IMG/VR virus record: IMGVR_UViG_3300002179_000002
Span: 1-64,000 of that record
Source: a virus
Taxonomy: Duplodnaviria; Caudoviricetes
DNA: 64,000 bases
Reading direction: 5' to 3' (one strand)
A model generated the notes under the pieces. The model did no database searches. It saw only the letters and a program-made list of their open reading frames with translations, and was not told the DNA's origin. The translations under genes and the position numbers were made by a program. Shown one piece after another: positions 10,399-55,271 of this stretch (the stretch's first letter is position 1; the number at the start of each line of letters is the position of its first letter).

Positions 10399-12936
10399 AT
10401 GGGAATTTTGCAGAACATATCAAACTATTTTAAGACAACTGATGAGAAACTTTCTCGTATAGCAGTTATTGAGTTTGAACTAAAAAAGATTGATTCTGTA
10501 AAAGACTTACTGATTGACCAGTATCAAGATATAAGTAAGGCACTGTCATCAGAGGAGTTTAATTGTAAAGAAGATGTTCACTTTGACAATAAGAAGTTCA
10601 CAAGAGAACTGGCCAAGATTAAACTACAAGAGAAAACGTTTCTAAAGGAGTTAGACATATTAAAGAGCAATAGTGATATAATCCATCACCTAAATAAAGA
10701 TAATCGGTCTAAGGCAGTTAGAATCATTAAATCACTATACAGATCAGGTAAGTTAACATTGGAAGATTATAACAAGGCTGCTGCTCAGCAAACAGAGAAA
10801 GGGCAGACTAAATATTCAGATGTAATAGTCATCAACAATAAGAATGAAATCCTATTAACAAAAAGAAGTCAGTGGGAAGACAACCACAAAGGAGCTTGGG
10901 TGATACCAGGTGGACATGTGGACGAAGGTGAAGAGTTTGAAGATGCAGCTAAGAGAGAACTGAGAGAAGAAACAGGGATAGACGCCGACATGCTCCTACA
11001 AGATGATAAGTTGAATGGCATCTATTGGAAACATCTAGGTATATTTGAAGATGAGAATGCATGTATTTATTACTATGTACTGAACATTCAATCAATTGAC
11101 AATATAGAGATATTATTGGATGAAGCTGAGACAAGAGACTATTTATGGGTGCCACGGGAAGAACTAAGTAACTACCCCATGATTTTCAATATGCGTGACA
11201 ATGTCGTTCAGATGATGGGTTGGGATTTTGATCCACAAGTAAAGATAATACAGAAGGCAGTAAGATTAGGTATATGTGGAGAAGATGTATTACAAAAAGC
11301 TCTGAATCATAAATACATTAGAAAAGAGTTCAAAGATAGTAAGTGGGGGTATATTTATGAAGAGAAGAAGAATAAGAAAGAGAAAGTAGAAGACTTTAAA
11401 GAAACTATAGTTGAGAAGTTAAATCAGTTTTCAGAAAGAAAGAATAACAATCAAGCTAACATATCTGAGTTTGTAGCAAAAGTATTACCAAAAGAAGATA
11501 TTGAGAGATATAAGAATCTATATGAACTTGCTTCAAGTGTTGGGGTACATGTAAATGTAGAAAAGGGGTCTGTTAGGTATGGAGCTGCTGCATGTTGGCA
11601 GTATAATCAAATGAATTTTGACCCATACATAACAAAACTTTATGAAGATAGGTCTAGTTTTACTGAGACTATTAACCATGAGACTCTCCATGGCATTATT
11701 TCCAAAGGTATTGGGGTAAATTCATATAATCTACACAGTGAATTGTTTCCTATAGCAAGAAAGATACTTGCTAATTTTGATTCTGCATCAGACAGCGTAA
11801 AACACATAATTTCATATATATTTGATGTTTCAATACAGCATAAAATACCAGATTTTTATAATGATGAATCTGGAAAGATAAAAGCAGATGATCTTGAAGA
11901 GTTAATTACATATGCATTTACTAATAAAGAATTTGCAGAATTTTTACAGACAATACCTTCAGATAGTGAAACTCCTACTGAGAAGAAAAGTATATTCTCT
12001 GAACTTAAAAATATTATAACAGGATTTATAAAGAAGTCATTTGGTAAGACTGCATTAGATGATATTGAAGAAGTAGTCAACAAATATTTCAATATTGATT
12101 GGAATGTTAACGAATATAAAGAAAGAAATGATAGATACTGGCATGAGAAGTTTAAAGTGTCAGAACACATCAAAAAAGCCATTCAACTCGGTATCATTCC
12201 TACTGAGAAAGTAAATGAGATAGTAAAAGCATTAAATCACAAATATCTCAAAAAGGAGATGAAGAATGGGAAGTGGGTGTACACTTACTATGAGAATCAA
12301 AATGACCAAGCTGTTGAGCGGAAAGAAGATTTCTTAGATGATTTAAAACAGAATTATGTTATTGATTATGATAAAAAGGATAAAATCGTATTCAACAACT
12401 TCTATAGGAATTATCCTAATGAAATGTTAAGTCACCAATGTTCTGTAAAGGTGATTGGAGCTTTGTCTAATAATCTACCTGAAAATATCGTTAGTCATTT
12501 GTCTAAAGCAAGACTACAGTTGGTTGATCAGAGTAAATACGAAAGAGAATCTAATGGATATTGGGTCGGAGCGTTTAATGAAGACTACAATGAAATAAGT
12601 ATAAATAAGCAACTATACGATGAAATTGCAACAGATTGGTATGGTCAAGAGCAATATACAAAAGTTATATTGCATGAATATGGACATAAGCTCTATAGAG
12701 ATGATAAAATAACCGCTGAGAATTTGGTTGATCTATGGTATACGAAAGAAAGAGTATCTCATCAGGCAGAAATGGATGAAGAAGAGAATTGGTGTGAATC
12801 CTTTGCTGCATTCGTTATGGCATTGGGTGATGAAGGTGATACAGAAGATAATAGAGATTTGAAAGATCTTAAAGAAGAATTCCCTAAGACATATGAAATT
12901 ATAAAGAACTTAATATCTGAAATGAATGAAAACTAA
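10399..12936 (+). CDS. Multidomain putative head cargo: Nudix hydrolase plus two HExxH zincin-like domains
   Basis: Nudix box GGHVDEGEEFEDAAKRELREETG; HETLH and HEYGH; two KALNHKY linker repeats. Confidence 0.8.
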   Translation: MGILQNISNYFKTTDEKLSRIAVIEFELKKIDSVKDLLIDQYQDISKALSSEEFNCKEDVHFDNKKFTRELAKIKLQEKTFLKELDILKSNSDIIHHLNKDNRSKAVRIIKSLYRSGKLTLEDYNKAAAQQTEKGQTKYSDVIVINNKNEILLTKRSQWEDNHKGAWVIPGGHVDEGEEFEDAAKRELREETGIDADMLLQDDKLNGIYWKHLGIFEDENACIYYYVLNIQSIDNIEILLDEAETRDYLWVPREELSNYPMIFNMRDNVVQMMGWDFDPQVKIIQKAVRLGICGEDVLQKALNHKYIRKEFKDSKWGYIYEEKKNKKEKVEDFKETIVEKLNQFSERKNNNQANISEFVAKVLPKEDIERYKNLYELASSVGVHVNVEKGSVRYGAAACWQYNQMNFDPYITKLYEDRSSFTETINHETLHGIISKGIGVNSYNLHSELFPIARKILANFDSASDSVKHIISYIFDVSIQHKIPDFYNDESGKIKADDLEELITYAFTNKEFAEFLQTIPSDSETPTEKKSIFSELKNIITGFIKKSFGKTALDDIEEVVNKYFNIDWNVNEYKERNDRYWHEKFKVSEHIKKAIQLGIIPTEKVNEIVKALNHKYLKKEMKNGKWVYTYYENQNDQAVERKEDFLDDLKQNYVIDYDKKDKIVFNNFYRNYPNEMLSHQCSVKVIGALSNNLPENIVSHLSKARLQLVDQSKYERESNGYWVGAFNEDYNEISINKQLYDEIATDWYGQEQYTKVILHEYGHKLYRDDKITAENLVDLWYTKERVSHQAEMDEEENWCESFAAFVMALGDEGDTEDNRDLKDLKEEFPKTYEIIKNLISEMNEN

Positions 12937-13363
12937 GATAGACACAAAACAAGTTCTTGAACTGGATGGGTTCTTTAAAAGATTTAGTACAAAGAGTGAC
13001 GATCCAAAGACAGAAGTTGTCGAAGAAAAAGACATAGAAAAAGCCTTCTCTCACATATCTGACCTCTATATAATGGATCAGATCAGTGATGAGATATACA
13101 ATGCAGCAAAAGAGAGATATGAGATACAGAAAGCACAAAAAGAAAAGTTGATCGGTGGCAGAGCTGATGGTAAGACATTAGAAGATATAGCTGCACATCA
13201 CAACATAGAGGTAAGTGCACTCCAGGAGCAGTACAAGATGGGTATGGAAGAAGAGAAAGAACATACGAGTGATGAAGAAGAGAGAAGTGAGATAACAAAA
13301 GATCATCTGATGGAAGATAGTAAGTACTATACAAAACTAGAGAAGAACATCGTTAGTGAATAA
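12926..13363 (+). CDS. DUF5661-like small head-region protein
   Basis: GMEEEKEHT...ITKDHLMEDSKYYTKL; DIEKA and EIQKA motifs. Confidence 0.6.
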   Translation: MKTKIDTKQVLELDGFFKRFSTKSDDPKTEVVEEKDIEKAFSHISDLYIMDQISDEIYNAAKERYEIQKAQKEKLIGGRADGKTLEDIAAHHNIEVSALQEQYKMGMEEEKEHTSDEEERSEITKDHLMEDSKYYTKLEKNIVSE

Positions 13364-13375
13364 TAGATAAATAAA

Positions 13376-14200
13376 ATGGAAGATAATAAATTTAATTTCT
13401 TTGTCCCTATTAATGATGAATTATTAGAGAAAGCATCTAAATTACCAAAATCAGATAGATATAAAAATATGTTTCTTGAAGGGATGGCTTCTGATAATTC
13501 ACAAGATATAGAAGGTGAAGTATTAGAACCTAACGGATATGAGATTGACCACTTTTTGAAAAATGGACTGATAAATTACGAACATTTGTCTAAAAGGAGC
13601 CCAAAATACTGGATTGGCTCTCCTGTTAAAGCTGAGATTAAAAATAATGAATTCCATATAAAAGCACAACTATGGGAGAACAGTGAAATAGCAAGAGACA
13701 CTTGGGATAAGATTATTGAGATGAAAGAGTCTGGATCTGATAGAAAAGTCGGTTGGAGCATCGAAGGAAAAGCACTGAATCGTTCTACTACTAATCCAAA
13801 ACATATCACCAGGGCACTTATAACTAACTGTGCCATAACATTTTCCCCGGTTAACGGAAATTCTTATGCGGATATAGCTAAAGGTCTTCAGAAGGAAGAT
13901 TATATAGATCCTACCTACGATCAGGATTCAGATGAGAAAGAATATATTATGGAGTTTGAGAACAAAGGTAAGAAGTATAGGGTAGGTAAAGACTATAAAG
14001 TATTTGAGGTATTAACTAAATCTATGGATGTAGCTGCAGTAAAACCACTCACACCTGAAAGTTTAGATAAGAAACCAAAAAATATTAGCCTACCTGACAT
14101 TAAAAAGGCATTAGATAATATATTGAAACATAAGAGTTTATTTGATGGAGACAGTGATTTTAAAAATAAAGTCATTAAATTAGTTAAAAATTCTTTGTAA
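13376..14200 (+). CDS. Prohead protease
   Basis: GMASDNSQDIEGE, INYEH, GWSIEG, CAITFSPVN motifs; precedes scaffold and capsid. Confidence 0.85.
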   Translation: MEDNKFNFFVPINDELLEKASKLPKSDRYKNMFLEGMASDNSQDIEGEVLEPNGYEIDHFLKNGLINYEHLSKRSPKYWIGSPVKAEIKNNEFHIKAQLWENSEIARDTWDKIIEMKESGSDRKVGWSIEGKALNRSTTNPKHITRALITNCAITFSPVNGNSYADIAKGLQKEDYIDPTYDQDSDEKEYIMEFENKGKKYRVGKDYKVFEVLTKSMDVAAVKPLTPESLDKKPKNISLPDIKKALDNILKHKSLFDGDSDFKNKVIKLVKNSL

Positions 14201-14283
14201 ATATTTTATTTATTCAAAATTATATTTTAATTTTATAAACTTAATAGTTAGTTTAGTATTCTGAACATAGAAACGACACAAGA

Positions 14284-15141
14284 ATGGAAAATCAAATTAA
14301 TATAATGTCTGTAGAGGAAGTTGATGAACTTAGAAAGTCATTGACTGATCTTGGCATGGAAGAAACAGAAGTCAACTCCTATATCGAAAAGGCTATGAAG
14401 GTCGAAAAGAAAGAAGAGAAAGAGTCTAGTTCAGAACAAACCATGGGAGAGAAAGCTGAAAAGACTGGCGAAGCAAATGAAACTTCTGCTGATGAAGCAA
14501 AAGAGACTCCTGCAGAACAAGCTGAAGAGAAAAAAGAAGGTGAAGAAAAACCTATAGTCAAGAGTGAAGATAAAGAAGAAGACTTAGAAAAATGTCTTAC
14601 TGAGATGAAGTCCAAGAAAGCTGAGATTGAGAAATCAATTGATGAGATGGAACTGAAGATGGGTAAGAAGAAACCAGAAGAGAAAAAGGAAGAAGAAATT
14701 CATAAATCAGTAGACATTGACATTGAGAAAGCCTTTGGTGAACGTTTCATGGACATTGAAAAGTCACTCACTGAGAAGTTCGAAGATAAGTTTGATGAAC
14801 AGAACGAGATCATAAAGAGCCTACAGTCTGAGATCAAGAAGATAGGTGACACTCCTATGGGAACAAAATCAGTTATTACTAAGGCTACTTTCTTTGAAAA
14901 GAGTTTGAGTAATGAAGAAGACGTAGAGAATGCTGAGAACAAAACACTCTCTATTTCTGGTAACAAAGATGAAATTTTAAAGGGTATGGAAGACATGCTC
15001 AATAAAGAGAAAGATGCCGACGTTAGACAAGTAATCGAAAACGGTATTTTAGACTATACAGTTAATACACGTCCTACTGGACACGGCTACAAGGCACTTG
15101 CTCTTTTAGCACATAGAAAAAATATTACTCTGGAGCAGTAA
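14284..15141 (+). CDS. Capsid scaffold protein
   Basis: Acidic coiled-coil between protease and capsid genes; about 11 hydrophobic-x-K-[ASG] motifs. Confidence 0.75.
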   Translation: MENQINIMSVEEVDELRKSLTDLGMEETEVNSYIEKAMKVEKKEEKESSSEQTMGEKAEKTGEANETSADEAKETPAEQAEEKKEGEEKPIVKSEDKEEDLEKCLTEMKSKKAEIEKSIDEMELKMGKKKPEEKKEEEIHKSVDIDIEKAFGERFMDIEKSLTEKFEDKFDEQNEIIKSLQSEIKKIGDTPMGTKSVITKATFFEKSLSNEEDVENAENKTLSISGNKDEILKGMEDMLNKEKDADVRQVIENGILDYTVNTRPTGHGYKALALLAHRKNITLEQ

Positions 15142-15177
15142 TTTTTAGTATTTCGTTAGATAATTAAATATAATAAT

Positions 15178-16668
15178 ATGTTTGACATTCATGATTCATT
15201 AGGCAAGAATGCTGAGAATTACTCCGATGAGGATATTATCAAAGCAATCGTTGCTGGTAGTCAGACAGGTCGCGATCTAACAGATACGCTATCGTCTGGA
15301 CCTTCCCTGAAACCTGAGTCACTTGACCCAGTTGTAAAGGTGTTGGAAAATAAAGAAAACCATATTGTACTTTGGAAATTACTTCCTAAAAAGAGTGTTT
15401 ACAATACAGTACATGAGTATAACCAATTAACCAGTTATGGTGCTGATGTAGGAATCTTCATGAATGAAGGTGAATCTCCAGAACAAACTGACTCTGTTTA
15501 CAGACGTAAGGCTGCTCTTGTAAAGTATGCTGGTATCCAAGGTGAACTGACACAACAGTCAATGCTTGTTCGCCAGGCTGACGGTAAAGATCCGTACACT
15601 CGTGAGGTTGAAAATAAGACCTTGAAACTCTTAACCCAGTTGGATCAGAAACTTTCAGGTTCTGACAATGCTATGGTTCCTCAGGAATTTGATGGTATTT
15701 TCAAACAACATTATGCAGGTGTCCTTGACATCACTGCTGGAACAGGTTTGGATACTTATGCTAACGACCCTACTTTCATTGATGCTCGTGGTAAAGCATT
15801 GAAAGATTCTCATGTAGAAGATGCAGTACAGGCAGTTGTTAATGATCGTTTTGGTGAAGCAACCAAAATCATCTCCAACCCTGTTGTTTTCAATGACTAT
15901 GTAAAACGTTTCCATGAAAGCAAACGTGTAATGGTTGGTGCACCTAGTTCAGCTACTGAAGGAGCTACTATGGGTCAGAAGGTTAATGATATCATGACTC
16001 AGTTTGGGAAAATTGATGTTGTCAATGATATCTTCTTCGATCGCAGAACTCCTAAGGCATACAATGCTGCAGCTGTTTCAGCTAAGGCTCCTGCCGTTCC
16101 TACTGCTGTGAATAACACCAGTTTGACTATCGCTTCTGCTGATACTTCAACCAAATTTACTGATGCTGCAGGTGGATACTTCTATGGAGTAACTGCTCGT
16201 AATCAGTATGGTGAATCAGCAATGTGTGCAATGAACACTACTATCAAGGCTATCGCAGCTACTGAATCTGTTGACTTAGTATTTGTTGCAGGTGTTGGTA
16301 CTTATGCTGCTACTTCCTTTACTGTTTATCGTACTGAGAAGAACGTCGCTGTATATACAACTGCTAAGTATTATCCATTGTTTGAAGTATCAGTAACACA
16401 ATTAGCTGCTGCTTCAGGTTATGATGGTGCTGCTCAGTATGGTGTACGTGATCGTAACCGAGTAATTGGTAACACACATTCAGCACTTGTTTTAGATCCT
16501 AATTCAGATATGTGGGAATATATCCAGTTAGCTGCCACGATGAAAATCGACTTTGCTATCACTACTTTGGCTCGTAGGTTTGCCGTAGTTAATTATGGTA
16601 CTCCAGTTTTATATATGCCAGGTAAGATCGCCATCATCCATAATATTGGACGAGATATCACTGCTTAA
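15178..16668 (+). CDS. Major capsid protein (SPO1/Twort-like)
   Basis: LKPESLD, TVHEYNQ, EFDG motifs; 496 aa; predicted maturation at K22|A23; followed by a terminator. Confidence 0.9.
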   Translation: MFDIHDSLGKNAENYSDEDIIKAIVAGSQTGRDLTDTLSSGPSLKPESLDPVVKVLENKENHIVLWKLLPKKSVYNTVHEYNQLTSYGADVGIFMNEGESPEQTDSVYRRKAALVKYAGIQGELTQQSMLVRQADGKDPYTREVENKTLKLLTQLDQKLSGSDNAMVPQEFDGIFKQHYAGVLDITAGTGLDTYANDPTFIDARGKALKDSHVEDAVQAVVNDRFGEATKIISNPVVFNDYVKRFHESKRVMVGAPSSATEGATMGQKVNDIMTQFGKIDVVNDIFFDRRTPKAYNAAAVSAKAPAVPTAVNNTSLTIASADTSTKFTDAAGGYFYGVTARNQYGESAMCAMNTTIKAIAATESVDLVFVAGVGTYAATSFTVYRTEKNVAVYTTAKYYPLFEVSVTQLAAASGYDGAAQYGVRDRNRVIGNTHSALVLDPNSDMWEYIQLAATMKIDFAITTLARRFAVVNYGTPVLYMPGKIAIIHNIGRDITA

Positions 16669-16694
16669 ACAATAGACGTATCAACGAAGAAATG

Positions 16695-16729
16695 ACGGGA
16701 GGGGTAGATCTCCTTCCGTTTTTCTTTTT
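16695..16729 (+). terminator. Intrinsic terminator after the capsid gene
   Basis: ACGGGAGGGG-5nt-CTCCTTCCGT stem (G-U pairs) plus T tract. Confidence 0.75.
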
Positions 16730-16752
16730 ATTCACATTTTTAATTTTGTTAT

Positions 16753-17295: not shown

Positions 17296-17301
17296 GAAAA
17301 C

Positions 17302-18969: not shown

Positions 18970-19968
18970 ATGGACTTCCAACAGAAGATACGAGAAGAAC
19001 AAATAAGAGATAAAATTAATATCATCAAGGCTACACTGCCAGAAATTGAAAAAGGTGGAGAAGGCAGTAGAGGGGGTAAAATTATTGGTAGAACTAAGAG
19101 TGGTCAACCTATTTATGCCAAGTCTCATAATATGCCATATGAAACTTATAGTAAGGAAGACCATAAAGATGCTGCTGAAGCACATAGTTTTGAACATAGA
19201 TCTGCAGAAGACAAATTGGAGAATACTCACGACCCTGTAAAAAGAAAGCAATTACAAGAGAGTATTAAAATGCATAGAGAAAATGCAGAGGGTCATATCC
19301 GAAGAGGTGATTCTATTCAAAAATCAGCGTTTGATGAGTTCGAACCAGACATGGAGAACATAGAGAAGTCACTACATGTATTCGGTAAATATCTCGGTGA
19401 AGAAGAACTGGATAAGTTTGAGAAGTCAATCAACCATAAATATTTTAAGAGAGAGCCAGTAGCAGGTGGTGGATACAAGTACTACTACACTGAAGCTGAT
19501 TATAAGAAGGAGAAGGGCGTTGGCGAGAATAAATCAGATGAGAGTGATAAATTAGTTAATCTTGCAATAGCTTCTTTATTAAAAGAATACGGAAATCCAT
19601 TGTCAACAAAACATCGATCAGATGGTTCAGTTTTGAACTATAAGAAAAATAAATTTTTTGTTGACTTAGAGGGTAATATTAAAGCAGAAAAGAAAAGGAC
19701 GGGCGATAAGAAAGAAGAGAATGAACTTGAAAGCATTTTTCATAGATTAAATAAAGTTGAAGAGTCCAAGAATACAGAGAATAAGAGTGAAGAGAAATTT
19801 GATCATACATTTTTTGATGATTATTCTCTAACTGGTAAAGAAAGAGAAATCATTATGAGAGCTAAAGGAAAAGATAAAGATTTAAATGAATTACAAGATC
19901 TTCATGATAATTCTTCAAATATTGATCAAAAAGGAAGAGATTATATTAGAAAATTTATGCATAAATAA
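18970..19968 (+). CDS. Putative head cargo protein inserted in the neck operon
   Basis: IIK|A, IEK|GGEGSRGGKIIGRTKSGQPIY, IQK|S, IEK|S, FEK|SINHKY motifs. Confidence 0.65.
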   Translation: MDFQQKIREEQIRDKINIIKATLPEIEKGGEGSRGGKIIGRTKSGQPIYAKSHNMPYETYSKEDHKDAAEAHSFEHRSAEDKLENTHDPVKRKQLQESIKMHRENAEGHIRRGDSIQKSAFDEFEPDMENIEKSLHVFGKYLGEEELDKFEKSINHKYFKREPVAGGGYKYYYTEADYKKEKGVGENKSDESDKLVNLAIASLLKEYGNPLSTKHRSDGSVLNYKKNKFFVDLEGNIKAEKKRTGDKKEENELESIFHRLNKVEESKNTENKSEEKFDHTFFDDYSLTGKEREIIMRAKGKDKDLNELQDLHDNSSNIDQKGRDYIRKFMHK

Positions 19969-22131: not shown

Positions 22132-24060
22132 ATGTCAACAAAAGTTCGCTTCGGCAATAAAATAGTTCAACTTCCAGGCACCTACTCTAGAATAGTAGCA
22201 GGACAGAATAATCCTCCTAGAGATTTAGATTATGGTAAGTTATTGATTATAGATAATCAAAACCTTAATGCGTCTCTTGCAAATAATGGCATGTTAGGCG
22301 GTGCTGGTATTGCTGGTACGCTTGTTTCAGGTAAGAATGCAGTTTACTCAGTAAAAGATATTCAAGCATTTAGAGACTTTGTTGGTGCTGGTTGGTGGTA
22401 TAAAGCCGCTGAAGGATTGTTTAATCCCGATGGCAACAATAATGGTGTATCCGAAATATTCATAGTTAAACCCGCCACTACAACCCCTGCTTTATTATCA
22501 TTCATTCCTACTGGAGGTGGAGCGGCTGGTGGTACATTCAAAGTCAAAACAAAAGATGAAGGTACAGCAGCTAACGGTAATCCTGATGAGACAAGAGCAA
22601 CTTCTACAGTGACAGTAACTGCTGCTGGATCAACTGCTGATAAAATCACAATTAAAGTATCTGGAGTAACAGTAGCTGAATATACCAATGCTTCAAGTGA
22701 TAGCATAGCAACTATGGTTGCAGGACTTGCTGCTAATATGACGTTATTGGGAATATGTTTAGTAGTATCTTCTACTTCTCCTGCATTAGCATTCAAAGCA
22801 CCTGTTGGATATGGAGCAACAACAGTAACTCCTACAGTAACAGTAACAGGCGGTGCAACAGGTTCTGCAGTAGCATTTGCAGGTGGAGTAACAGCAACTA
22901 ACCTTTTATCAGGTTATGCTTATAAGATTGAGACAGGTGTAGTTGATACAGCAAAATGGATTTTCAAGATTTGGAGAGGTAATTATAAAGGTTTATATTC
23001 AGACAATATTCCTTATGATGAAATCACTTCAGCTAATTCAAGACCTACATTAGTAGCACAGTCACCAGAGTTCAATAATGTTCAGACATTGATTGATTGG
23101 GCTTTGACTGACAGTACATTTGGTAAATTATTTGTATTGGATGCCACTTCTGCTAAGACAGGTGCAGGAACAGTTACTTCAGCTGACATAACAGCTAACA
23201 CTGGTTATAGGGTTGCTTCTACAGGTACTGCAACTTATGATTCTATTGATGATGCATTAGACGCAATTAAAGACTTAAATTATAGTGCAATATTAACTAC
23301 TTGTTCAACAGCTAACCCTTCAACTGATACTACTATTCTTAAGATAGTTGATCATATTGAAAACGAAGCTAAGTTCGACAAACATCTCTATATAGCAGGT
23401 GATGATAATGATGTTGATACTTCTGTTGGTTATGCTGAAACATTTGACTCAGAGAAAGTCATATTGGTTCATGGTGCTATTCAAAAAGTAAGCAGATTAG
23501 CTGCTAGTGGCTTTAGAGTTTGGGAACAGTTCTTTCATACAGCCTATAATGTAGGTAGGGTATTAGGATTAGCTCCACAAGTACCTTTGACATTCAAATC
23601 ACTTGATATTGATGGTTTAGTATCTCCACTGAATGTTAAAGACCAAGAGAAAGCTGATGCAGCAGGTGTATTGGTAACAGTATTTGATGAGGACTTTGGT
23701 AAGTTCATCAACCTACACGATGTAAACACATTACAGGATAGTGATTTTGTATTAACAAATGCAGGTACTTCACACCTTATTCAGATAGAACGTATCAAAG
23801 CTCAGTTGAACAAGGAACTTATCATCAATGCTAAACTTGACCTGATGTCTGATCCTAACGGTGTCAATCGTTCTTCATTAACCGAAGAGGATGCTATTGA
23901 ATGGACTAAAGGCTATTTAGGTCGTAAAATGGGAACCCTGATTGTAGCTTGGAGAAATGTTACTGCAACTACTTCTGGTGACTTCCTATTTGTAACTTAT
24001 GAGGCATCTCCTAATACTGAGATTAAAGGTGTTTTCTTCACTGGTGGACTTTACATATAA
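22132..24060 (+). CDS. Contractile tail sheath protein
   Basis: LPGTYSRI N-terminus, QVPLTFKSL, DVNTLQ; 642 aa; followed by the tube gene. Confidence 0.88.
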   Translation: MSTKVRFGNKIVQLPGTYSRIVAGQNNPPRDLDYGKLLIIDNQNLNASLANNGMLGGAGIAGTLVSGKNAVYSVKDIQAFRDFVGAGWWYKAAEGLFNPDGNNNGVSEIFIVKPATTTPALLSFIPTGGGAAGGTFKVKTKDEGTAANGNPDETRATSTVTVTAAGSTADKITIKVSGVTVAEYTNASSDSIATMVAGLAANMTLLGICLVVSSTSPALAFKAPVGYGATTVTPTVTVTGGATGSAVAFAGGVTATNLLSGYAYKIETGVVDTAKWIFKIWRGNYKGLYSDNIPYDEITSANSRPTLVAQSPEFNNVQTLIDWALTDSTFGKLFVLDATSAKTGAGTVTSADITANTGYRVASTGTATYDSIDDALDAIKDLNYSAILTTCSTANPSTDTTILKIVDHIENEAKFDKHLYIAGDDNDVDTSVGYAETFDSEKVILVHGAIQKVSRLAASGFRVWEQFFHTAYNVGRVLGLAPQVPLTFKSLDIDGLVSPLNVKDQEKADAAGVLVTVFDEDFGKFINLHDVNTLQDSDFVLTNAGTSHLIQIERIKAQLNKELIINAKLDLMSDPNGVNRSSLTEEDAIEWTKGYLGRKMGTLIVAWRNVTATTSGDFLFVTYEASPNTEIKGVFFTGGLYI

Positions 24061-34766: not shown

Positions 34767-34969
34767 TGTTTAGATCTCCAGATTGTTACGATTGTAAATA
34801 TAAAATATGTCTTCATGGGATTCATATTTGTGAAGCTTTTTTTAATGGTATTCCTAATGAAATATTTTTTAAGGGAGTGAAACATGATAAAAAGATGTTT
34901 GATCAAACTAATGATCTTATTTTTGAATTAGAAGAAAAACCTGCTATCTCTGATGATAAAACGATATAA
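34766..34969 (+). CDS. Small Cys-rich partner protein
   Basis: CYDC...CEAFFNGIPNEI...H; coupled to the zincin gene. Confidence 0.6.
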   Translation: MFRSPDCYDCKYKICLHGIHICEAFFNGIPNEIFFKGVKHDKKMFDQTNDLIFELEEKPAISDDKTI

Positions 34970-36746
34970 CAAGACATCTTTGTCTGACTTCTTTAAGTAC
35001 AATGACCCACAGATAGCTGCGTGGGCAGATAATGTATATGAGAAGATTAGACAATCAGGTGAATTGGCTAATTATATAGAAAGAGAGAAGGCAAGTAGGG
35101 AACATTTCACTGTGGTGGATGGAACAACTAATCCTCCTATTGAAGTGGTAGATGATAGATTCACTTTTGGTCAAGCATATTCGGGAGATTTACTTACTAT
35201 AGATAATAGTTTGAGAGAGAATATTGGCAGAATATATGATATAGAATTTGAACTCCTATTCAACGAGATAAGTTTTATTGATATATTTCTGATGGATAGT
35301 AATATAGTCATTCATAATACTCCGTCTATTGTCATACATGGATTGACCTTTAGCGGATTCACTGCTTTCAATACAGGTCAGATTTATCAGATAAGAATAT
35401 CAAGAGTAAACAATACAGTAAGTCTTTATATTGACAAAGTATTGATTGGGACAAGTCTTTTAAGTTCAGACATTGATACAGAATTCACTGTTTTATATAG
35501 TTCAGATCAAGGAGCACTACCAGACAACTTCACATTATCAGTAAACTCATTGACGCCTAATAGTGGGGTTACTATAACTACTTCTAATCTCGACATAAAC
35601 GGAGACTCAGACGGCAATACTCAATTCAATAGGATATATGCACATGGAACAGCTGTAACGTTCACAGCGCCTCTAACTACGCCAGATAACAACTTCAAAC
35701 GTTGGATACTTGATGGGATAAATCAGCCACAGGGACTGAGAACAATGACTGTAATTATGAACGCAAATCATACTATTACAGCATTATTCGTCATACCAAC
35801 TCTATTTTATAATGCTGAGAGAAGTCAGACATTCACAAGAAACAATTGTATTGGGGGATTAATAGGTAGCGACGTACCATATGTAGTAGCGGCTGGTTCG
35901 TATTCATCTTTGATAAGCCAAGCAGATGCCGATGCTCAGGCTGCAGCAGATATCGCTTCTAACGGTCAGACTTATGCCAATGATAATGGTACTTGCTCAG
36001 TGGTTTATTGGAATGTAGAAGAATCACAAGCTTTCACAAGAAATGATTGTGAGATAGGTTATTCTGGTTCATCAGAGACATATGTAGTAGCGGCACACAC
36101 CTATTCATCATTTATAAGTCAGATAGACGCCAATAATCAAGCACTTGCTGAAATAGCTGTTAACGGTCAAATTTATGCAAATGTACACGGCACTTGTGGT
36201 ATCTATTTCAATGTAGAAGTCTCAAACGAATATACGAGAGACGATTGTGGATCTGGTTACGTAGGTTCAACAGAATTATATACTGTATCTGCGGGAACAT
36301 ATAGCTCAGCAATAAGTCAAGTTGATGCAGATAGTAAAGCAACTGCTGATATGGCAGTCAATGGTCAGAACTACGCCAATACAAACGGAACTTGTACGGT
36401 GATGGTGATAGGCTTAGTCAATTGGTCGTTTGCAGCAGGGATGTCAACTCCAGATAAATATCTGAAAGTCTGGATTAATGGAAATCCTGTTGTAAATGTT
36501 ACAGAGACCGCTTCAAGTAATTTCCATCTATATGAAGGAGATATTGTAATCGTTGAAGCTAAATCAGCTAGTAGTGGAGATTTTTATGGTGAAAGCGTAG
36601 ATTTAGTAATAACTGGAAGCGGAACATTTGTTAACTATAGCGAATCAATAGATGGTTTTAATCAAATACTAACGCATACATTTACTTGGACAACCGCTAA
36701 TGGCACCATAACAATATTAAGTAGAATACCAACAGTTTTAGAATAA
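34953..36746 (+). CDS. Baseplate-associated protein with LamG-like part, B-repeat-like domain and three DUF5977-like repeats
   Basis: Three repeats of about 66 aa, FTRNxC..G..GS...Y.V.A..YSS.ISQ.DA...NGQ.YAN..GTC. Confidence 0.7.
   Translation: MIKRYNKTSLSDFFKYNDPQIAAWADNVYEKIRQSGELANYIEREKASREHFTVVDGTTNPPIEVVDDRFTFGQAYSGDLLTIDNSLRENIGRIYDIEFELLFNEISFIDIFLMDSNIVIHNTPSIVIHGLTFSGFTAFNTGQIYQIRISRVNNTVSLYIDKVLIGTSLLSSDIDTEFTVLYSSDQGALPDNFTLSVNSLTPNSGVTITTSNLDINGDSDGNTQFNRIYAHGTAVTFTAPLTTPDNNFKRWILDGINQPQGLRTMTVIMNANHTITALFVIPTLFYNAERSQTFTRNNCIGGLIGSDVPYVVAAGSYSSLISQADADAQAAADIASNGQTYANDNGTCSVVYWNVEESQAFTRNDCEIGYSGSSETYVVAAHTYSSFISQIDANNQALAEIAVNGQIYANVHGTCGIYFNVEVSNEYTRDDCGSGYVGSTELYTVSAGTYSSAISQVDADSKATADMAVNGQNYANTNGTCTVMVIGLVNWSFAAGMSTPDKYLKVWINGNPVVNVTETASSNFHLYEGDIVIVEAKSASSGDFYGESVDLVITGSGTFVNYSESIDGFNQILTHTFTWTTANGTITILSRIPTVLE
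35805..36398 (+). repeat. Three tandem ~200-nt DUF5977-like coding repeats
   Basis: Units start near 35805, 36006 and 36204. Confidence 0.8.
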
Positions 36747-48209: not shown

Positions 48210-48268
48210 ATTATATTTTTGTTTCTGAATTGAAAATATTAATTTTATTGAATAATTAAATTTCGTAA

Positions 48269-49660: not shown

Positions 49661-49663
49661 AAT

Positions 49664-50695
49664 ATGGATTATCAGAAAATTTATGATCAAATAGTTATTA
49701 GAGCTAGATCTGAGAATAGAAAAAAGAAACAGGGAATTTACTACGAGAATCATCATATTTTGCCCAGAGGCTTAGGTGGTAGTGACATTGATGAAAATTT
49801 AGTTTTGCTTACTGCCAGGGAGCATTATATCTGTCATAGATTACTAGTTGAGATATATGTAGGAAATTCAACATTGGCTTATGCTTTGTGGATGATGGTT
49901 CATTCAAAGACAAAATTTCAACAACGAGATTATAAAATATCTTCGCGAGAATATGAGAGGCATCGAATTATGCATGCCGAGAATGTTTCTAAGAATCAAA
50001 GTGGAGAGAACTCGTCGTTTTATGGCGTTCATAGATATGGAGAGGATTCTTATAGATGGGGGATGACGCATACAGAAGAAACTAAATTAAAAATTAGTAT
50101 TACTAAGACAGGGGTAACAATGTCTGTGGAAGTGAGAGAAGCAATAAGTAAAGGGCATTCGGGCGAGAAAAGCATATGGTTCGACGTTCATAGATATGGA
50201 GAAGATAATCCAAATTTTGGACATTTGTGGACAGAGGAAATGAAACTTAGAGATAAAGAAATAATGCTGAATAAAGAAGATATTATTTGCCCCTACTGTG
50301 GCGTGTCTGGTCATCCCTCTATAATGAAAAGGTGGCATTTCGATAATTGCAAAATGAATCCCAATAGAGAGAAGAAATTATTATTTAAGTGTGATTGGTG
50401 CGATTATACTAGTGAAAACGAAGTTAACATACGTAGAAGGCATAATGATAAATGCAAAGAAAATCCAGATAGAATCATAACGATTTATGAGTGCGAATTC
50501 TGTGGGTTTACTTCAACTGAAAAAGGACACATTACTAATCATAAACGATTTTGTGAGTTAAATCCCGAAGGAAAAGCAAGACCCATAATAACTTGCGAAT
50601 ATTGTGGACTACAGAGTACTAATCAAGCTAATATGACACGCTTTCATGGAGACAAATGCCCCTCTCCAAACAACCCTTTAAATGAACAAGTCTAA
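49664..50695 (+). mobile_element. Free-standing HNH homing endonuclease with NUMOD3-like and four zinc-finger-like repeats
   Basis: HHILPRGLGG...NLVLLTAREHYICH; HTEETKLKIS; four CxxC...H...C units. Confidence 0.8.
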
Positions 50696-51656
50696 GATCA
50701 TATCTGAATTCTCCCTCACCACTTTCGGAAGTAAGGGGTTTCTTAAGGGTCAATTGTACTGTCCAGAATGCAGTCGTAATGATAAGTTTGGAATCCTATT
50801 CAAAGAGAACGGAGCTCTCTGTCACTGTTTCTACTGCTCGACATCATACTCCCTCAACAAGATACTGAGAGATATCGGCAGAACAGACCTGCTCGAGTAC
50901 GACTTCGATTACGAGCCGACATCTTCGTTGGCTCCCCTCAAGAAAGAAGAGGAGATAGCAGATGACAAAGACACAAAGCTGCCTATTGGCTTTATGAGGA
51001 TCAAGCAGGATGACTATCTCGATGCGAGAGGCTTCACGCCTGAGCAGTACGATCAGTTCCATGTAGGGGTCGCTGAGTTGGACCCAAAGACTGAGGATAA
51101 GATAGTATTCCAACTGTATCAGCACGACGTCCCTGCTGGATGGATGGCGAGGTCCAGGAAGTCCAAGGAGTGGCATCATGAGAATCTTAGGCGGCACAGA
51201 GAGCTTGGAGAGCCACTCGTGCTGAGATACAGGAACTCAAACAATGACTTCAGCAGGATGCTTGGCGGATTGGACGAGATAATGAAAGACACTCATACTC
51301 TGATCTTGGTCGAGGGCATCATGGACAAAGCCAACATAGATCGGTTGATGCATCTGAATGAGCAGCAGGAGATAAAGTGCTGCTTCACATTCGGCTCTGA
51401 CCTTAGCATCAACCAGATAGACCTCATTCCAGAGTCAGTAGATACGGTCATACTGATGTATGACGCTGGGACCATAAAGATGATGAAGCTGGCTGGAGGC
51501 AGGTTGATGTCAAGCTTTGATGTCCAAGTGGCGCTGATAGAGGGCAGAGATGCAGACCCTGGCAGCATATCTGAAAAAGAATTGTCGAAATTACTTTCTA
51601 ATCTGAAAAGTTTTATTTATTTTTATAGCTTCCTAGACAACTTCAAGACAATTTAG
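50682..51656 (+). CDS. DNA primase (zinc finger + TOPRIM)
   Basis: CPEC...HCFYC; LVEGIMD; LMYD; DADPG. Confidence 0.85.
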   Translation: MNKSKIISEFSLTTFGSKGFLKGQLYCPECSRNDKFGILFKENGALCHCFYCSTSYSLNKILRDIGRTDLLEYDFDYEPTSSLAPLKKEEEIADDKDTKLPIGFMRIKQDDYLDARGFTPEQYDQFHVGVAELDPKTEDKIVFQLYQHDVPAGWMARSRKSKEWHHENLRRHRELGEPLVLRYRNSNNDFSRMLGGLDEIMKDTHTLILVEGIMDKANIDRLMHLNEQQEIKCCFTFGSDLSINQIDLIPESVDTVILMYDAGTIKMMKLAGGRLMSSFDVQVALIEGRDADPGSISEKELSKLLSNLKSFIYFYSFLDNFKTI

Positions 51657-53168
51657 ATGGAAGATATTTTTAAATCGATTCAAGAGGGTATTAATTTACA
51701 GAGAGAGTGGATCGCGAAGTCGTTTACGATCAATATTGATATCGAAAAGGGAAAGAAGTCTCCTATTGGAGCTATTCACGTTAATAAACAAGGAACTTGG
51801 GTCAAAGTATCTGATACTGGTAATGGTCACAAGGATTGGGTTTTGGAGAAAAAAGTTAAGTCTGAATCTAAAATCGAAGAGAAGGAAGAGTGTTCAAAAT
51901 CAGAATTAAAATCAGAGAAAATTAAAATGAATGAGAGTTTCCCGAAAAATTTTAATATTGCTAGGGAGAATCTGACGACATCAGAAATGTTTCAAAAAAC
52001 ATCAAAAGGAAAATTTAAAGATCAAAATGAACTATATGATAAATTAGGAGGCAAAGAGAATTTAGAGAAAAAATTAAAAAGTTTTATTAATGACAGTGCC
52101 GTTTATATGGCTATTAAGAGTGGAACGCTTATTAGAGAGATTATTAATAAATCAGACGCATTTAAAAATAGTCTTGAAACGGGAAAAGGGTCTTTTAAAA
52201 CGATTGGAGAAGAGAGAACGCTGAAAGAGAAGTTTATTTTTGGCATAGATACAGAAGCTAATTCAAGCGAAGCAGATAATTTTCCAAAATACGGATTTAT
52301 TTCTTCAAAAGAAGAGATGAGTTATGAACCTATCTCCGAAGGAAATTATGGAAATGCATATGTAAAATTTAAGACATCTGCTGTCAAAGATAGAACTAGT
52401 ATTACTTTGGGAGATTCGTTCAATGATAATGGTTCTATCTCGTATAAAGGTCAAATAGATTTAACTTCTGTAGCGCCCCCTACTAAATTAAATGATGTAG
52501 ATGATAAACTCATTTGGGGCATTAATAATAATGATCCTAACTCAGATATGTGGAATAAAATAAATGAAGCTAAAAATATTGATGAATTTACAGAAGCATC
52601 TGTTTCTTCATATATGGAAGCTCAAATATATGGGAAGCTGTCTATAGATGATGTTGATAGCATTTTTGTAAGTTCTATAAAGGAAGCAGATTCTTTTAAC
52701 GCAGCGTTGAAAAAGGCAGGTAGAGAAATAAAAGTTTTGCCTTGTAAATTTGATAATAGATTAAACAATCTTGTGGGTGGTTATCATAGAGGGGATGGTC
52801 CTAGATATCGCGCTTCATTAAATCCAAGTGATATTGATAATCTTGGCGATTATTACATAGATATATTAGCTAATAAATGGCTTGCTGAGTCAGAAGTTGA
52901 AGTTAAGCATAATGCATTACCCTCTGGACTAGTTTTACTTGCTAAAAAATATAATCAGTTTACTAAAGATGAGCAAGGTCGTAAGGTAAGAATTCATTCA
53001 GATATAAGTATGGAAGACAAAAGAAATTGGCTTAAGAAATTCTACGAACTAATGTCTAATGGAGATGATGGAGGAATGCCTTTCTTTTGGCGTGAAGATT
53101 ATAGAAAAACAATAGGAGGATTCACTGATGATGTGATGAATAAGAAACTATTGATAAAATATAAATAA
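51657..53168 (+). CDS. Putative head cargo protein with DUF3626-like domain
   Basis: Leader MEDIFKSIQ...WIAKS...DIEKG; FKNSLETG, PKYG, YG...RTSITLGDS, YMEAQIYG. Confidence 0.65.
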   Translation: MEDIFKSIQEGINLQREWIAKSFTINIDIEKGKKSPIGAIHVNKQGTWVKVSDTGNGHKDWVLEKKVKSESKIEEKEECSKSELKSEKIKMNESFPKNFNIARENLTTSEMFQKTSKGKFKDQNELYDKLGGKENLEKKLKSFINDSAVYMAIKSGTLIREIINKSDAFKNSLETGKGSFKTIGEERTLKEKFIFGIDTEANSSEADNFPKYGFISSKEEMSYEPISEGNYGNAYVKFKTSAVKDRTSITLGDSFNDNGSISYKGQIDLTSVAPPTKLNDVDDKLIWGINNNDPNSDMWNKINEAKNIDEFTEASVSSYMEAQIYGKLSIDDVDSIFVSSIKEADSFNAALKKAGREIKVLPCKFDNRLNNLVGGYHRGDGPRYRASLNPSDIDNLGDYYIDILANKWLAESEVEVKHNALPSGLVLLAKKYNQFTKDEQGRKVRIHSDISMEDKRNWLKKFYELMSNGDDGGMPFFWREDYRKTIGGFTDDVMNKKLLIKYK

Positions 53169-53196
53169 AATGATTAGACGAACATAGATAAATAAA

Positions 53197-53697
53197 ATGG
53201 AACAACCAGTAACCAAGTCAAGGGATCTTTCGTTAATAGACTTCTATTCTGTACTTCAACAAGAATTCATCTCCTATTATGTACGTTCGAAGATCTACCC
53301 GAAACCTTTCTCAGAGAAGTATAAGAACTATTGTATCTGCAAGAGGGACAAGATTGAGAAGATAAGTGAGAAGAATAACTTGCCTTCTATCTTCAACAGC
53401 AACAGCACAAAAGAACGATGTATCAGAGAGTTTTTTGCTGAGTATGGCCTCCCTAATTTTGAGTATAGAGATGAGAAGTCAAAGTCTATAATGGGACGTT
53501 GGGACTCAATCTATTTCTTCCGAGAGGGAGTGAAAGTGAGGATCAAACTCGACAGTGAATATCTCGACCTGCCCGTCATTAAGAATATGTTCTCAGATAA
53601 TAGCGTCACAGTAAAAGTAAAGGGAGAATTGGAGCAGTTCAATTACTCCTATGTATCTAGAATACTGACTGACTCGTTGGTCGATTGGGACATCTAA
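53197..53697 (+). CDS. Hypothetical protein
   Basis: ORF track, 166 aa. Confidence 0.6.
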   Translation: MEQPVTKSRDLSLIDFYSVLQQEFISYYVRSKIYPKPFSEKYKNYCICKRDKIEKISEKNNLPSIFNSNSTKERCIREFFAEYGLPNFEYRDEKSKSIMGRWDSIYFFREGVKVRIKLDSEYLDLPVIKNMFSDNSVTVKVKGELEQFNYSYVSRILTDSLVDWDI

Positions 53698-53720
53698 TCA
53701 ATAACGATTATAAATTATGA

Positions 53721-53768
53721 GAAATATAAGATTTATATTTTTCGTATCAGTTTAATTATTAATTTTAT
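53721..53768 (+). promoter_or_regulatory. Operator-like palindrome (53721-53740) abutting promoter motif TTCGTAT-N11-TTAATTTTAT (53741-53768)
   Basis: Fourth promoter copy; second palindrome copy. Confidence 0.65.
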
Positions 53769-53790
53769 GGCAAATTAAAAAGAGAAGATC

Positions 53791-53967
53791 ATGAAACCAT
53801 TTGAAATTGATATTGAATTGGAAACTGTTACAATTAAACTTTTTGCCAAAAATAAAACTGAAGCCAAAAAGAAAGCTCTATTAAAGTTGAGTAAAATTAA
53901 TCCCACTAAACTTATTAGTAAAAGCTGGCCTGATAAAAAGAAAAACATTGATGTAAACGAAGTGTAA
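53791..53967 (+). CDS. Small basic protein (58 aa)
   Basis: Hand-translated MKPFEIDIELETVTIKLFAKNKTEAKKKAL...; directly downstream of the promoter. Confidence 0.55.
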   Translation: MKPFEIDIELETVTIKLFAKNKTEAKKKALLKLSKINPTKLISKSWPDKKKNIDVNEV

Positions 53968-54011
53968 TGAATTTTAATTAATAATTTTAACGCTACAAAA
54001 TATTCAACAAA

Positions 54012-55271
54012 ATGAGCATAGAAGACGACATCCGCAAAGCACAAGAACAACAGAAAGAGATACTAAAATCTTTTTATGGCAGTGAGGCCACTCCCGATCT
54101 TGTGAAGAGAGTAGAGACTGATATCGAGAAGGCTAAGAAATCTCCCATCGGGACGATCCACGTGAACTCAGCCGGGACATGGAAGAAGATGACAGACACT
54201 GGCGATGGCCATAAAGACTGGGTAAGAGTTAAGAAAGGTGACAAAGATCATCCTGAAACACCTAAGACTGAAGAAAAGAAAGAAGAACCTAAGAAAATTG
54301 ATTGGGCTGCTAGAACTGCTCCTGAAGAGAAACCTACATATGATTTTAAAGTTGGAGATAAGGTTAAATTAGGCGATGATATTAATCTAGTGTCTTTATC
54401 TGATTTAAAAGGAAAAACATTAGAAGTAGTTGGGGAAGAGAAAACAGATTTGATTAGTCAACCTACTTTTATTAAAGTTAAACTTCCTGATGGTGAAGTA
54501 AAGTCATTTAGTCCAGACTATCTGAAGAAGTTTGATGAGAAGGAAGAGAAAAGTAAAGAAGAGAAAGATGAATTTTATATGAAAAGGGAATTAATATCTT
54601 CTATAGATAATTCAGAACATGAAAAAGTTTCAGAACTTTCAGATAGAGATTTAAAATATCGTTTAGACACCCTTACTTCTATATCCAGACATACAATTCT
54701 TAATGCTTCAGCTTCAAAAATGTTGCGTTCATTAATTCAAGAAAAACAGTCTAGGTATGCTAAGTCTGAACCCAAGAAAGAAGAAGAATTCAAAGTTGAA
54801 GTTCCCAAGGAAGAAATTGTTTTATTAAATAAAATTAACGCATTAGATAAAGAATTTAAAGCAAAAAATATTAAGAGTGATTATGATTATTTTATGACAA
54901 GTGAAGGAGTGAAAGCTAAAGATAAAATTGATGAGTTGAGAGTTAAATATAATGATTTAAGAGTTAAAAGATTCATTGCATTATTAGCTGATAGTAAAGC
55001 TAAGCCTGAACCCAAGAAAGAAGAAGTAAAACCAGTAGAAGAGAAGAAGGAAGACAATTCACTTGAAGAAGCTAACAGGGAATTTAGAGATCGTAAGAAA
55101 TCTCTTTATAAAACATTTGCTGCAATGTCATCTAATCAATGCAGTATCAAGGCAGCTAAAGAAGTAGCAAAGAAATTCAAAATCAGATATCAAGACATTC
55201 TTAAAACCAAAACTCCTGATAATAATCTTGAAGGAGATAAAGGGTGGGATAAGAATGGAGATATTAAATAA
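54012..55271 (+). CDS. Putative head cargo protein, modular, with SH3/KOW-like domain
   Basis: Leader DIRK|A, EILK|S, DIEK|AKKSPIGTIHVN; FKVGDKVKL. Confidence 0.65.
   Translation: MSIEDDIRKAQEQQKEILKSFYGSEATPDLVKRVETDIEKAKKSPIGTIHVNSAGTWKKMTDTGDGHKDWVRVKKGDKDHPETPKTEEKKEEPKKIDWAARTAPEEKPTYDFKVGDKVKLGDDINLVSLSDLKGKTLEVVGEEKTDLISQPTFIKVKLPDGEVKSFSPDYLKKFDEKEEKSKEEKDEFYMKRELISSIDNSEHEKVSELSDRDLKYRLDTLTSISRHTILNASASKMLRSLIQEKQSRYAKSEPKKEEEFKVEVPKEEIVLLNKINALDKEFKAKNIKSDYDYFMTSEGVKAKDKIDELRVKYNDLRVKRFIALLADSKAKPEPKKEEVKPVEEKKEDNSLEEANREFRDRKKSLYKTFAAMSSNQCSIKAAKEVAKKFKIRYQDILKTKTPDNNLEGDKGWDKNGDIK

Follow-up and report, generated by a model that had tools for sequence, protein, structure and literature searches.

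A lysine-directed motif shared by the scaffold, the capsid, and six dispersed, probable head cargo genes of an uncultured myovirus

Introduction

Why should six genes scattered over a phage genome carry the same short lysine motif as its head scaffold? The question is raised by a 64,000-nucleotide stretch of DNA, here called the window, which forms the first 64 kb of the 75,860-bp IMG/VR virus record IMGVR_UViG_3300002179_000002; the record is rated 69% complete, and nearly all genes of the window lie on the + strand. The source is an uncultured myovirus whose capsid gene is SPO1/Herelleviridae-like, and the named phages closest to it have Bacteroides and Chryseobacterium as hosts. A preliminary description of positions 10399 to 55271 pointed to six genes, named hereafter by their start coordinates (10399, 12926, 18970, 33885, 51657, and 54012), that carry the motif [ILVF]-x-K|[ASG], and proposed a plug-in system in which a portable leader routes diverse enzymes into the head, the prohead protease releases them, and they are injected with the DNA. 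All six open reading frames (ORFs) are present where they were described. We find the motif to be concentrated in these genes, the scaffold, and the protease, and it stands at the start of several conserved junction modules; the explanation that accounts best for the whole is a lysine-specific prohead protease together with tagged head cargo of the polyvalent-protein type, which would be cut free and injected, and we give it a probability of about 0.66.

Results

The motif is concentrated in the scaffold, the protease, and six dispersed genes

Two forms of the motif were counted, a broad one ([ILVF]-x-K-[ASG]) and a strict one (I-x-K-[AS]), with the mean of 500 composition-preserving shuffles as the expectation for each protein and 200 shuffles for the pooled tests. 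The six candidates together (2537 amino acids [aa]) have 30 broad motifs where 12.3 are expected and 21 strict motifs where 2.98 are expected, and 0 of 200 shuffles reach either count. The pooled protease (13376) and scaffold (14284) have 16 versus 2.92 broad and 9 versus 0.68 strict motifs; the scaffold alone has 11 broad sites (1.33 expected) and the protease 5 (1.48 expected), confirming the approximately 11 scaffold copies and the additional protease copies that had been reported. Among the candidates, 10399 has 11 versus 3.27 and 18970 has 5 versus 1.55. The remaining 82 proteins (21305 aa) are at chance, with 88 versus 79.7 broad and 15 versus 16.6 strict motifs, and other Lys-rich proteins of the genome (e.g., 55500, 16753, and 72760) are not enriched.

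An unbiased ranking of all 90 ORFs by the strict motif gives two or more copies in only seven, which are the scaffold and the six genes; 16 ORFs have one copy and 67 have none. Control patterns in the six proteins are not enriched, whether the Lys is replaced by Glu (12 versus 10.1) or Arg (3 versus 3.1), the residue after it (P1') by Asp or Glu (12 versus 13.4), or the pattern is reversed (15 versus 12.0); the pattern [ILVF]K[ASG] is mildly enriched (21 versus 12.4). The sites are also clustered toward the N termini, and 11 of the 19 in the five smaller proteins fall within the first 45 residues, which make up 13.3% of the length (binomial P = 6e-6). Clustering in the six named genes is therefore borne out by the pooled shuffles, the flat controls, and the ranking, and it holds against composition-matched and Lys-rich proteins alike.

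The motif recurs where a prohead protease would act

The head maturation protease is encoded at 13376 to 14200 (+ strand, as are all head and tagged genes described below) and matches phrog_1028 (E = 7e-38). An invariant His (in NYEH) and Ser (in GWSIEG) are found in six of six aligned proteases, and its motif sites include a conserved K169|G and K244|A in the tail. It is followed by the scaffold (14284 to 15141) and by the major capsid protein (15178 to 16668), which is SPO1 Gp6.1-like (phrog_752, E = 1e-62; PDB 9vel_C, Gp6.1, E = 1.7e-45). The capsid motif noted earlier, I-I-K22|A23, is present in the sequence, and we predict a cut there, at 15235 to 15246. The scaffold drifts among relatives while its I-[EQ]-K-[SA] columns are kept, and both the capsid context DEDI[IVL]K|AI and the protease-tail site [DE]I[KS]K|[AS] are kept in eight of eight genomes, namely the window and seven related contigs whose capsids are 74 to 85% identical to that of the window. 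Further away, the capsids of Chryseobacterium phage MA9V-3 and Bacteroides phage DAC19 have ELQK|AM at the equivalent place.

The same arrangement is found in the Bacillus phages Nachito and CampHawk, in which the scaffolds have 10 versus 1.48 and 11 versus 1.27 motifs, the proteases have 9 versus 1.03 and 8 versus 1.54, and the capsids carry LSK|ALEAG and LNK|ALEAG, respectively. One Herelleviridae capsid protein, from what we take to be Staphylococcus phage 812, is in the PDB twice, as a 463-aa chain (5lii_P) and as a 439-aa chain (9row_B) that lacks the first 24 residues and starts after ..V-V-K; we read the latter as a mature N terminus left by cleavage at h-x-K|S, where h is hydrophobic. 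The lysine motif is thus very probably the site of the prohead protease, conserved in the scaffold, the capsid N terminus, and the protease tail out to the Bacillus Herelleviridae, as judged from these sequence comparisons.

HK97 gp5 is cut at K103|S104 and the A511 capsid protein Cps after Lys23. The window resembles these HK97-type and Herelleviridae maturation systems in having a putative Ser/His prohead protease and a capsid predicted to lose about 23 N-terminal residues by a cut after Lys and before a small residue. We know of no dispersed motif-bearing cargo genes in those phages.

We also note that the protease and scaffold of MA9V-3 are one 532-aa fusion (contig L012, 12336 to 13934) with 20 h-x-K-[ASG] sites versus 2.34 expected. 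The protease tails of Nachito and CampHawk (L019 and L020) read ..MSK|SLEAGYATSP and ..LDK|SLEAGYEVDP, near copies of the capsid cut context ..LSK|ALEAGYATTP, and look like self-cleavage sites that mimic the capsid.

Leaders and junction modules begin at the motif

The leaders of the tagged proteins are homologous, as proposed. The 15 of 23 (33885 and 51657) and 29 of 39 (51657 and 54012) leader matches and the three copies of K[AS][LI]NHKY in 10399 and 18970 were verified by eye, and BLASTP is significant for 51657 against 54012 (45% identity over about 90 aa; E = 2e-16), 33885 against 51657 (68% over 22 aa; E = 1.6e-4), and 10399 against 18970 (32% over 71 aa; E = 4e-4). The typical leader is an N-terminal amphipathic helix, with sites at K6 and K21 (33885 and 51657), K9 and K19 (54012), or K20 and K28 (18970) that match the motif of the scaffold and of capsid K22.

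Four short junction modules recur behind leaders or between payloads. Module A, K|[AS]x[NS]HKY[IF][KR][KR]E..G.W.Y.Y, has a site directly before it in 15 of 15 copies; in the AlphaFold2 (AF2) model of 10399 it forms a beta hairpin preceded by two helices. Module B, K|[AS]F..IS[ED]LY.KG, and module D, K|[AG]..G[IV]Y..T..N[RK]KLGRVGQ, directly follow a site in five of five and four of four copies. In module C, K|[GAS]KKxxIGEIRxWxGKKYxKxxxGKWxxV, the Lys immediately precedes 10 of 10 aligned local copies, one of which (L010) has V in place of A, S, or G as the next residue. Pfam searches of excised pieces with modules A, B, and C (C as two window copies) and of payload pieces gave nothing meaningful at E values up to 5. 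The description of the six genes as otherwise unrelated does not hold, since they have junction modules in common and belong to the published theme of polyvalent proteins (PMC5512222).

Module C is widespread. A 46-position profile matched 1054 cluster representatives among 1.84 billion proteins at E <= 1e-3, and 110 at E <= 1e-10; the carriers are 78 to 2551 residues long and have up to four copies each. In the best 150 matches, 186 of 203 cores (92%) have h-x-K-[ASG] 6 to 9 residues upstream, a figure that is partly circular because the profile contained the I-E-K columns; in 42 cases the alignment left out I-E, and the motif is nevertheless present in 22 of them, compared with 7.4% of random 9-residue windows. 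The site logo runs D/E, D/E, I/L/F, E, K | G>A>S, K. Of the best 150, 108 have their first module C no more than 100 residues from the N terminus, and in 106 of these it is preceded by one to five sites. Two matches that start M-GKRAG.., with the module at residue 2, have no site, as expected if the N terminus is already free.

Many carriers of module C are small, with 60 of the best 150 under 250 aa and many of these little more than tag and module. A Pfam scan of 7 of the 21 matches over 1000 aa found ART-PolyVal (ART, ADP-ribosyltransferase) in three, DUF5661 in three, NUDIX in two, LPD1 in one, and RadC, topoisomerase I, S-adenosylmethionine (SAM) lyase, and UvrD domains. The homologues of the 54012 leader sit on proteins of 85 and 323 aa (P0108 and P0123). 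A word-based search with the leader alone (residues 1 to 75 of 51657) returned only 51657 itself, and tblastn of two module C proteins gave MA9V-3 as the only match among 50,697 phage records (P0059) and no match to named phages (P0084). It is about an even chance that the module C tag, an acidic helix with one to four h-x-K|small sites followed by the module, is a general addressing-and-release code for prohead loading, cleavage by a Lys-specific prohead protease, and DNA-linked delivery, open to whatever enzyme takes it up, be it at any genomic position or within a polyprotein.

As a side observation, the SAM lyase domain belongs to a 1092-aa, polyvalent-type protein with four copies of module C (P0074; Pfam E = 2.9e-10). 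Lyases of this type are known from T3 anti-restriction.

The homology of leaders and modules can be turned the other way. The motif might be a structural part of homologous helical and junction modules, marking where a helix ends and a hairpin starts, and of Lys/Glu/Ile-rich coiled coils such as scaffolds, inherited but never cut, in proteins that need not be in the virion; the sites are indeed shared by descent, most lie near helix ends rather than in loops in AF2 models, and I-E-K is a conserved column of module C. Against this stand four modules without detectable mutual similarity that all begin at the site, and the same motif at the capsid N terminus and protease tail, which are not such modules. 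The 439-aa Herelleviridae capsid chain also starts right after V-V-K, and the Glu, Arg, and reversed patterns are flat although a helix bias would predict their enrichment, as are the other Lys-rich proteins. We consider this explanation unlikely.

Payloads of the six tagged genes

The first tagged gene (10399 to 12936) codes for an 845-aa polyvalent protein with a NUDIX domain (Pfam E = 5e-23) and 11 broad and 7 strict sites. Its parts are a helical leader (1-125), NUDIX (141-260), module A (~283-322), a zincin-type HExxH (427-431), a second module A (~590-632), and a second HExxH (759-763). Homologues shuffle the same parts with GNAT, Kinase-PolyVal, ART-PolyVal, and DUF5661 domains and a DUF3626-like end. 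The ART-PolyVal, Kinase-PolyVal, and LPD families are found in none of the window proteins, and two of them occur in homologues of 10399 (ART-PolyVal in P0048; Kinase-PolyVal in P0049 and L005). Only 10399 combines several enzyme domains (NUDIX and two HExxH regions); the other five are single-payload genes.

Next to it, 12926 (12926 to 13363) codes for a 145-aa protein in which module B is flanked by IEK|A (K39) and IQK|A (K69) and followed by DUF5661 (Pfam E = 1.5e-11), a domain that is fused inside the polyvalent polyprotein in relatives L007, L008, and P0048. The 332-aa product of 18970 (18970 to 19968), from a variable slot of the neck module, has leader sites K20|A and K28|G, further sites at K118 and K133, module A at K152, and a C-terminal payload; it has no Pfam or PHROG family. 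The 293-aa product of 33885 (33885 to 34766), inserted after the baseplate wedge gene, runs from a leader helix (K6|S and K21|S) through module C to an HExxH domain (167-171). As leads only, this payload resembles an Atlas Pro-Pro endopeptidase-like cluster (score 0.95) and, by structure (template modeling [TM] score 0.73), the non-MuF part of proteins in a cluster that is 99% Phage_Mu_F.

With two HExxH domains in 10399 and one in 33885, the cargo might instead be processed by its own zincin metallopeptidase (MPTase) domains, the lysine motif being their site and not that of the prohead protease; autoproteolysis by MPTases, before or after packaging, is what PMC5512222 proposes. The motif, in contrast, fills scaffolds and marks capsid N termini in Nachito and CampHawk, which is the classical job of a prohead protease, and 51657, 54012, 18970, and 12926 have it without any zincin; PMC5512222 itself also gives assemblin-like peptidases a processing role in virion assembly. 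We regard zincin processing at the motif as very unlikely.

A confident model was obtained for 51657 (51657 to 53168; 503 aa; AF2 predicted local distance difference test [pLDDT] 83.7). The model has a leader helix at 2-22 (K6|S and K21|S), a disordered stretch at 22-91 with K31|G and module C, and a folded payload at 95-503, so that sites K6, K21, and K31 lie ahead of the fold. In Foldseek, the 17 PDB matches listed (ranks 1-17) are all of ART fold, with SopF (7dn9_A) best (E = 4.3e-5; TM 0.46 by target) and OspC3, DarT, CopC, and CteC after it; the payload is accordingly modelled as a SopF-like ADP-ribosyltransferase fold. The match to Pfam PF12294 (DUF3626; E = 2.8e-5, 23.7 bits) is below the gathering cut-off of 27. 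Among 44 sequence homologues of the payload, nine are listed with Phage_Mu_F, seven with DUF3626 (PF12294), one with DRAT, and one with ADPrib_exo_Tox, and a domain of this DUF3626-like type ends the head-module polyprotein in L005 and L008. The last gene, 54012 (54012 to 55271), codes for a 419-aa Lys-rich protein. Its leader has sites K9|A and K19|S, module C stands at K40|A, and the remainder gave no usable Atlas match (model pLDDT 0.57). PHROGs gave nothing for five of the six, and Phage_Mu_F (PF04233) was found by Pfam in none of them.

Gene 54012, in particular, invites the reading that tagged proteins enter the prohead and are not injected, and that they act inside, serve as accessory core or DNA-condensing proteins, or are degraded and expelled like the scaffold. 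Both 54012 and 18970 are Lys-rich and poorly folded, and for the payload of 54012 no matching fold was found and model confidence was low; many of the small module C proteins are mostly tag and module, and 18970 and gene g6355 of relative G001 have a scaffold-like density of sites. The recognizable payload folds, in contrast, belong to enzymes with substrates of host type (ART fold, NUDIX, and zincins here; SAM lyase, RadC, topoisomerase IB, and UvrD in module C relatives), and there is a parallel with T4 Alt and with the polyvalent proteins of PMC5512222. We think retention in or loss from the head improbable. The six genes probably encode head cargo of the polyvalent-protein kind.

Tagged cassettes appear portable

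Comparison with G001, a 94-kb relative, gives a view of how the genes are placed. Its fibre gene comes immediately after the baseplate wedge gene, without 33885; its homologue of 50682 stands directly before that of 53197, without 51657; and it has no homologue of 54012. By gene order these three genes are insertions relative to G001. That genome has a tagged set of its own, with g86924 and g90329 at other places and another tagged gene where the window has 18970. The 18970 slot is occupied by other leader-tagged genes in L005, L006, and L008/G001, and there is no gene in it in DAC19 and MA9V-3. The recombination break-points among homologues of the NUDIX protein lie exactly at I-V-K|A; L006 ends 8 aa later, and L008 switches there to DUF5661. 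A search of viral contigs for loci related to the whole of 51657 and of 33885 found none. Slot contents and the leader homologues on other proteins support the proposal of portable leaders on swapped payloads, and the cassettes as a whole are portable as far as the sequences tell; the same payloads recur alone behind a leader, as part of a polyprotein adjoining MuF, or, in other phages, joined to MuF itself.

In the variable neck slot of L006 (10756 to 11502) there is also a 248-aa ORF with Cys-rich repeats and, by eye, a GIY-YIG-like start; next to it are a fibre-like gene and a tagged one in which module C occurs twice.

The comparison of the genes with morons was not borne out. Classical morons with their own promoter and terminator are rejected, given that 33885 and 51657 abut the upstream gene and that a promoter and terminator scan of 50000 to 56500 was below the shuffle mean, with no signal above chance; the scan does not cover Bacteroidota-type promoters.

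Comparison with known systems

In T4, unrelated proteins are directed to the prohead core by a short leader, which is removed by the protease gp21 with a cut at (L/I)-x-E. The window resembles T4 in having a short N-terminal leader, a predicted protease site (hydrophobic-x-charged) at which the scaffold would be diced as well, and an ADP-ribosyltransferase (Alt in T4) among the predicted cargo; it differs in having Lys rather than Glu at P1 and longer leaders followed by conserved modules that would stay on the cargo. Targeting by T4 propeptides is described in PMC10052503 (citing Mullaney and Black 1996), and packaging and injection of Alt in PMC5512222. The former also describes prohead protease gp245 of the giant phages SPN3US/phiKZ, for which one motif is repeated in long propeptides of head and ejection proteins and which sheds its own C-terminal tail. 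That motif, unlike the present one, ends in Glu and belongs to another lineage, its propeptides have 111 to 254 residues compared with a portable tag of 20 to 80 residues here, and the system has mass-spectrometric proof (PMC10052503). T4 and SPN3US are thereby experimental precedents for head cargo addressed through a protease.

Polyvalent proteins of phages and conjugative elements were described by Iyer, Burroughs, Anand, de Souza, and Aravind in 2017, with packaging and injection predicted; processing is ascribed mainly to MPTase autoproteolysis, and the account mentions assemblin-like peptidases only as C-terminal fusions (PMC5512222). The likeness is in multi-enzyme proteins beside MuF and head genes, with 10399 and its homologues carrying NUDIX, zincin MPTases, ART-PolyVal, Kinase-PolyVal, DUF5661, and LPD1. 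The lysine junction motif, modules A to D, and single-payload genes with a portable leader are not described in the main text of that paper, which contains neither "linker," "spacer," or "boundary" nor a cleavage motif (PMC5512222). A literature search for "polyvalent protein" with "prohead protease" returned the 2017 description and an unrelated preprint, neither of which deals with dispersed motif-tagged cargo.

MuF-fused (polymorphic) toxins of temperate phages were reportedly described by Jamet et al. in 2017. There is some likeness here in that the 51657 payload family is fused to Phage_Mu_F in the nine listed homologues and the 33885 payload resembles a non-MuF part; unlike such toxins, 51657 and 33885 have no MuF domain, and a short leader with module C stands in its place.

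A proposed mechanism and its weighing

From the observed motif statistics, conservation, homology, synteny, and folds we infer cleavage, packaging, injection, and host targets as follows. Cleavage after Lys in hydrophobic-x-K|[A/S/G], which in this phage is mostly D/E-I-x-K|[A/S], is most likely the work of 13376, a predicted serine prohead protease. Its targets would be K22 of the capsid, about 11 sites that break up the scaffold, and its own tail, which it would lose. The payloads (NUDIX, three zincin-like, DUF5661, the SopF-like ART fold, and two without an assignment) have ahead of them or between them modules that start exactly at a site. The leader and junction modules would first bring the precursor into the prohead, the protease would then cut at the junctions and release single enzymes, and these would exit together with the DNA and work at an early stage in the following host cell, as do T4 Alt and the internal proteins. 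Loading of the six enzymes into the capsid and their release by the head protease are thus probable. Of the original plug-in proposal, the protease site, the portable leaders, the head-associated payloads, and three insertions (by comparison) stand, and the classical morons and the unrelatedness of the genes do not.

Several results weigh on the other side. The enrichment of 33885 (3 versus 1.34), 51657 (5 versus 3.10), 54012 (4 versus 2.55), and 12926 (2 versus 0.59) in the broad motif, taken singly, is not significant, and common ancestry of the leaders and modules accounts for part of the overall enrichment; the circular component of the module C figure belongs here as well. Some sites are within predicted helices or folded parts (K165 and K353 in the AF2 model of 51657; K436 of 10399, right after HExxH), and therefore some of the motif matches cannot mark a cut. 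For 10399, AF2 gave a poor model (pLDDT 59.7), and its sites are placed in linkers on the strength of Pfam envelopes and homology breaks instead. Searches with the protease found no Pfam family at a cut-off of E = 0.01 and no PDB sequence match at a cut-off of E = 1. A 1459-aa head-module protein of MA9V-3, neighbor of the protease-scaffold fusion, is not enriched (4 versus 3.75). The MuF assignment of 9445 is weak, with no Pfam family and no significant BLASTP match to a MuF-fused protein, and a portal gene was not found in the 69%-complete record. A structure prediction of a complex of capsid, scaffold, and an 80-residue leader scored 0.00 with no controls and has no bearing either way.

Should the code hold, the proteins that many uncultured phages inject could be read from their sequences, by identifying the scaffold motif first and then all proteins in which it stands behind a leader or module. 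Candidates for anti-defense and host takeover would emerge in this way, which in the window are the ART fold, NUDIX, and zincins and among its relatives SAM lyase, kinase, RadC, and topoisomerase IB. The processing of polyvalent proteins, left open in the 2017 description, would be settled, and foreign proteins could be brought into the capsids of Bacteroidota phages by means of an existing tag.

Genome organization and relatives

Megablast of 25 kb of the window against the 50,697 phage records gave no match. By tblastn, the capsid gene is 33 to 35% identical to those of Bacteroides phages DAC19-23/SJC03 and of MA9V-3, and about 29 to 32% to those of Bacillus Herelleviridae. The window begins with beta-helix and fibre genes, followed by lysis genes, the MuF-like gene 9445, 10399, and 12926; then come the protease, scaffold, capsid, and neck genes, and later sheath, tube, and baseplate genes, and terminase, helicase, dUTPase, ThyX, and Pol III alpha. 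Two tagged genes, 10399 and 12926, are thus located between 9445 and the protease, and 18970 is within the neck module, with 33885, 51657, and 54012 elsewhere.

The gene that opens the head cargo module (9445 to 10359) is tentatively assigned to a MuF-like minor head protein (phrog_115, E = 4.9e-4); it has an HPFCRC motif and syntenic homologues in DAC19 (30% identity) and MA9V-3 (36%). Portal-sized genes precede the MuF-like gene in MA9V-3 and DAC19 and have no BLASTP match in the 75,860-bp record, in which lysis genes occupy the place before the MuF-like gene; the portal gene thus either belongs to the third of the genome that the record lacks or sits at another position.

Other features include a right-handed beta-helix protein (118 to 1755) and paralogous fibre-like genes (1895 to 7175, 22132 to 24060, and 34953 to 36746), with BLASTP E values of 1e-11 for 1895 against 3300, 3e-7 for 3300 against 22132, and 2e-18 for 5901 against 34953. 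A 343-aa ORF with a NUMOD3 motif of the homing-endonuclease type (49664 to 50695) lies between the DnaB-like helicase gene and 50682; it is lacking in G001, in which helicase g38354 is followed by g39723. The end of the window (56001 to 64000) has a G+C content of 0.44 to 0.46, compared with 0.32 to 0.39 elsewhere, and codes for dUTPase_2, ThyX, an HhH-GPD and partial thymidylate-synthase ORF (58750 to 59607), and a Pol III alpha of 1167 aa whose start codon is TTG.

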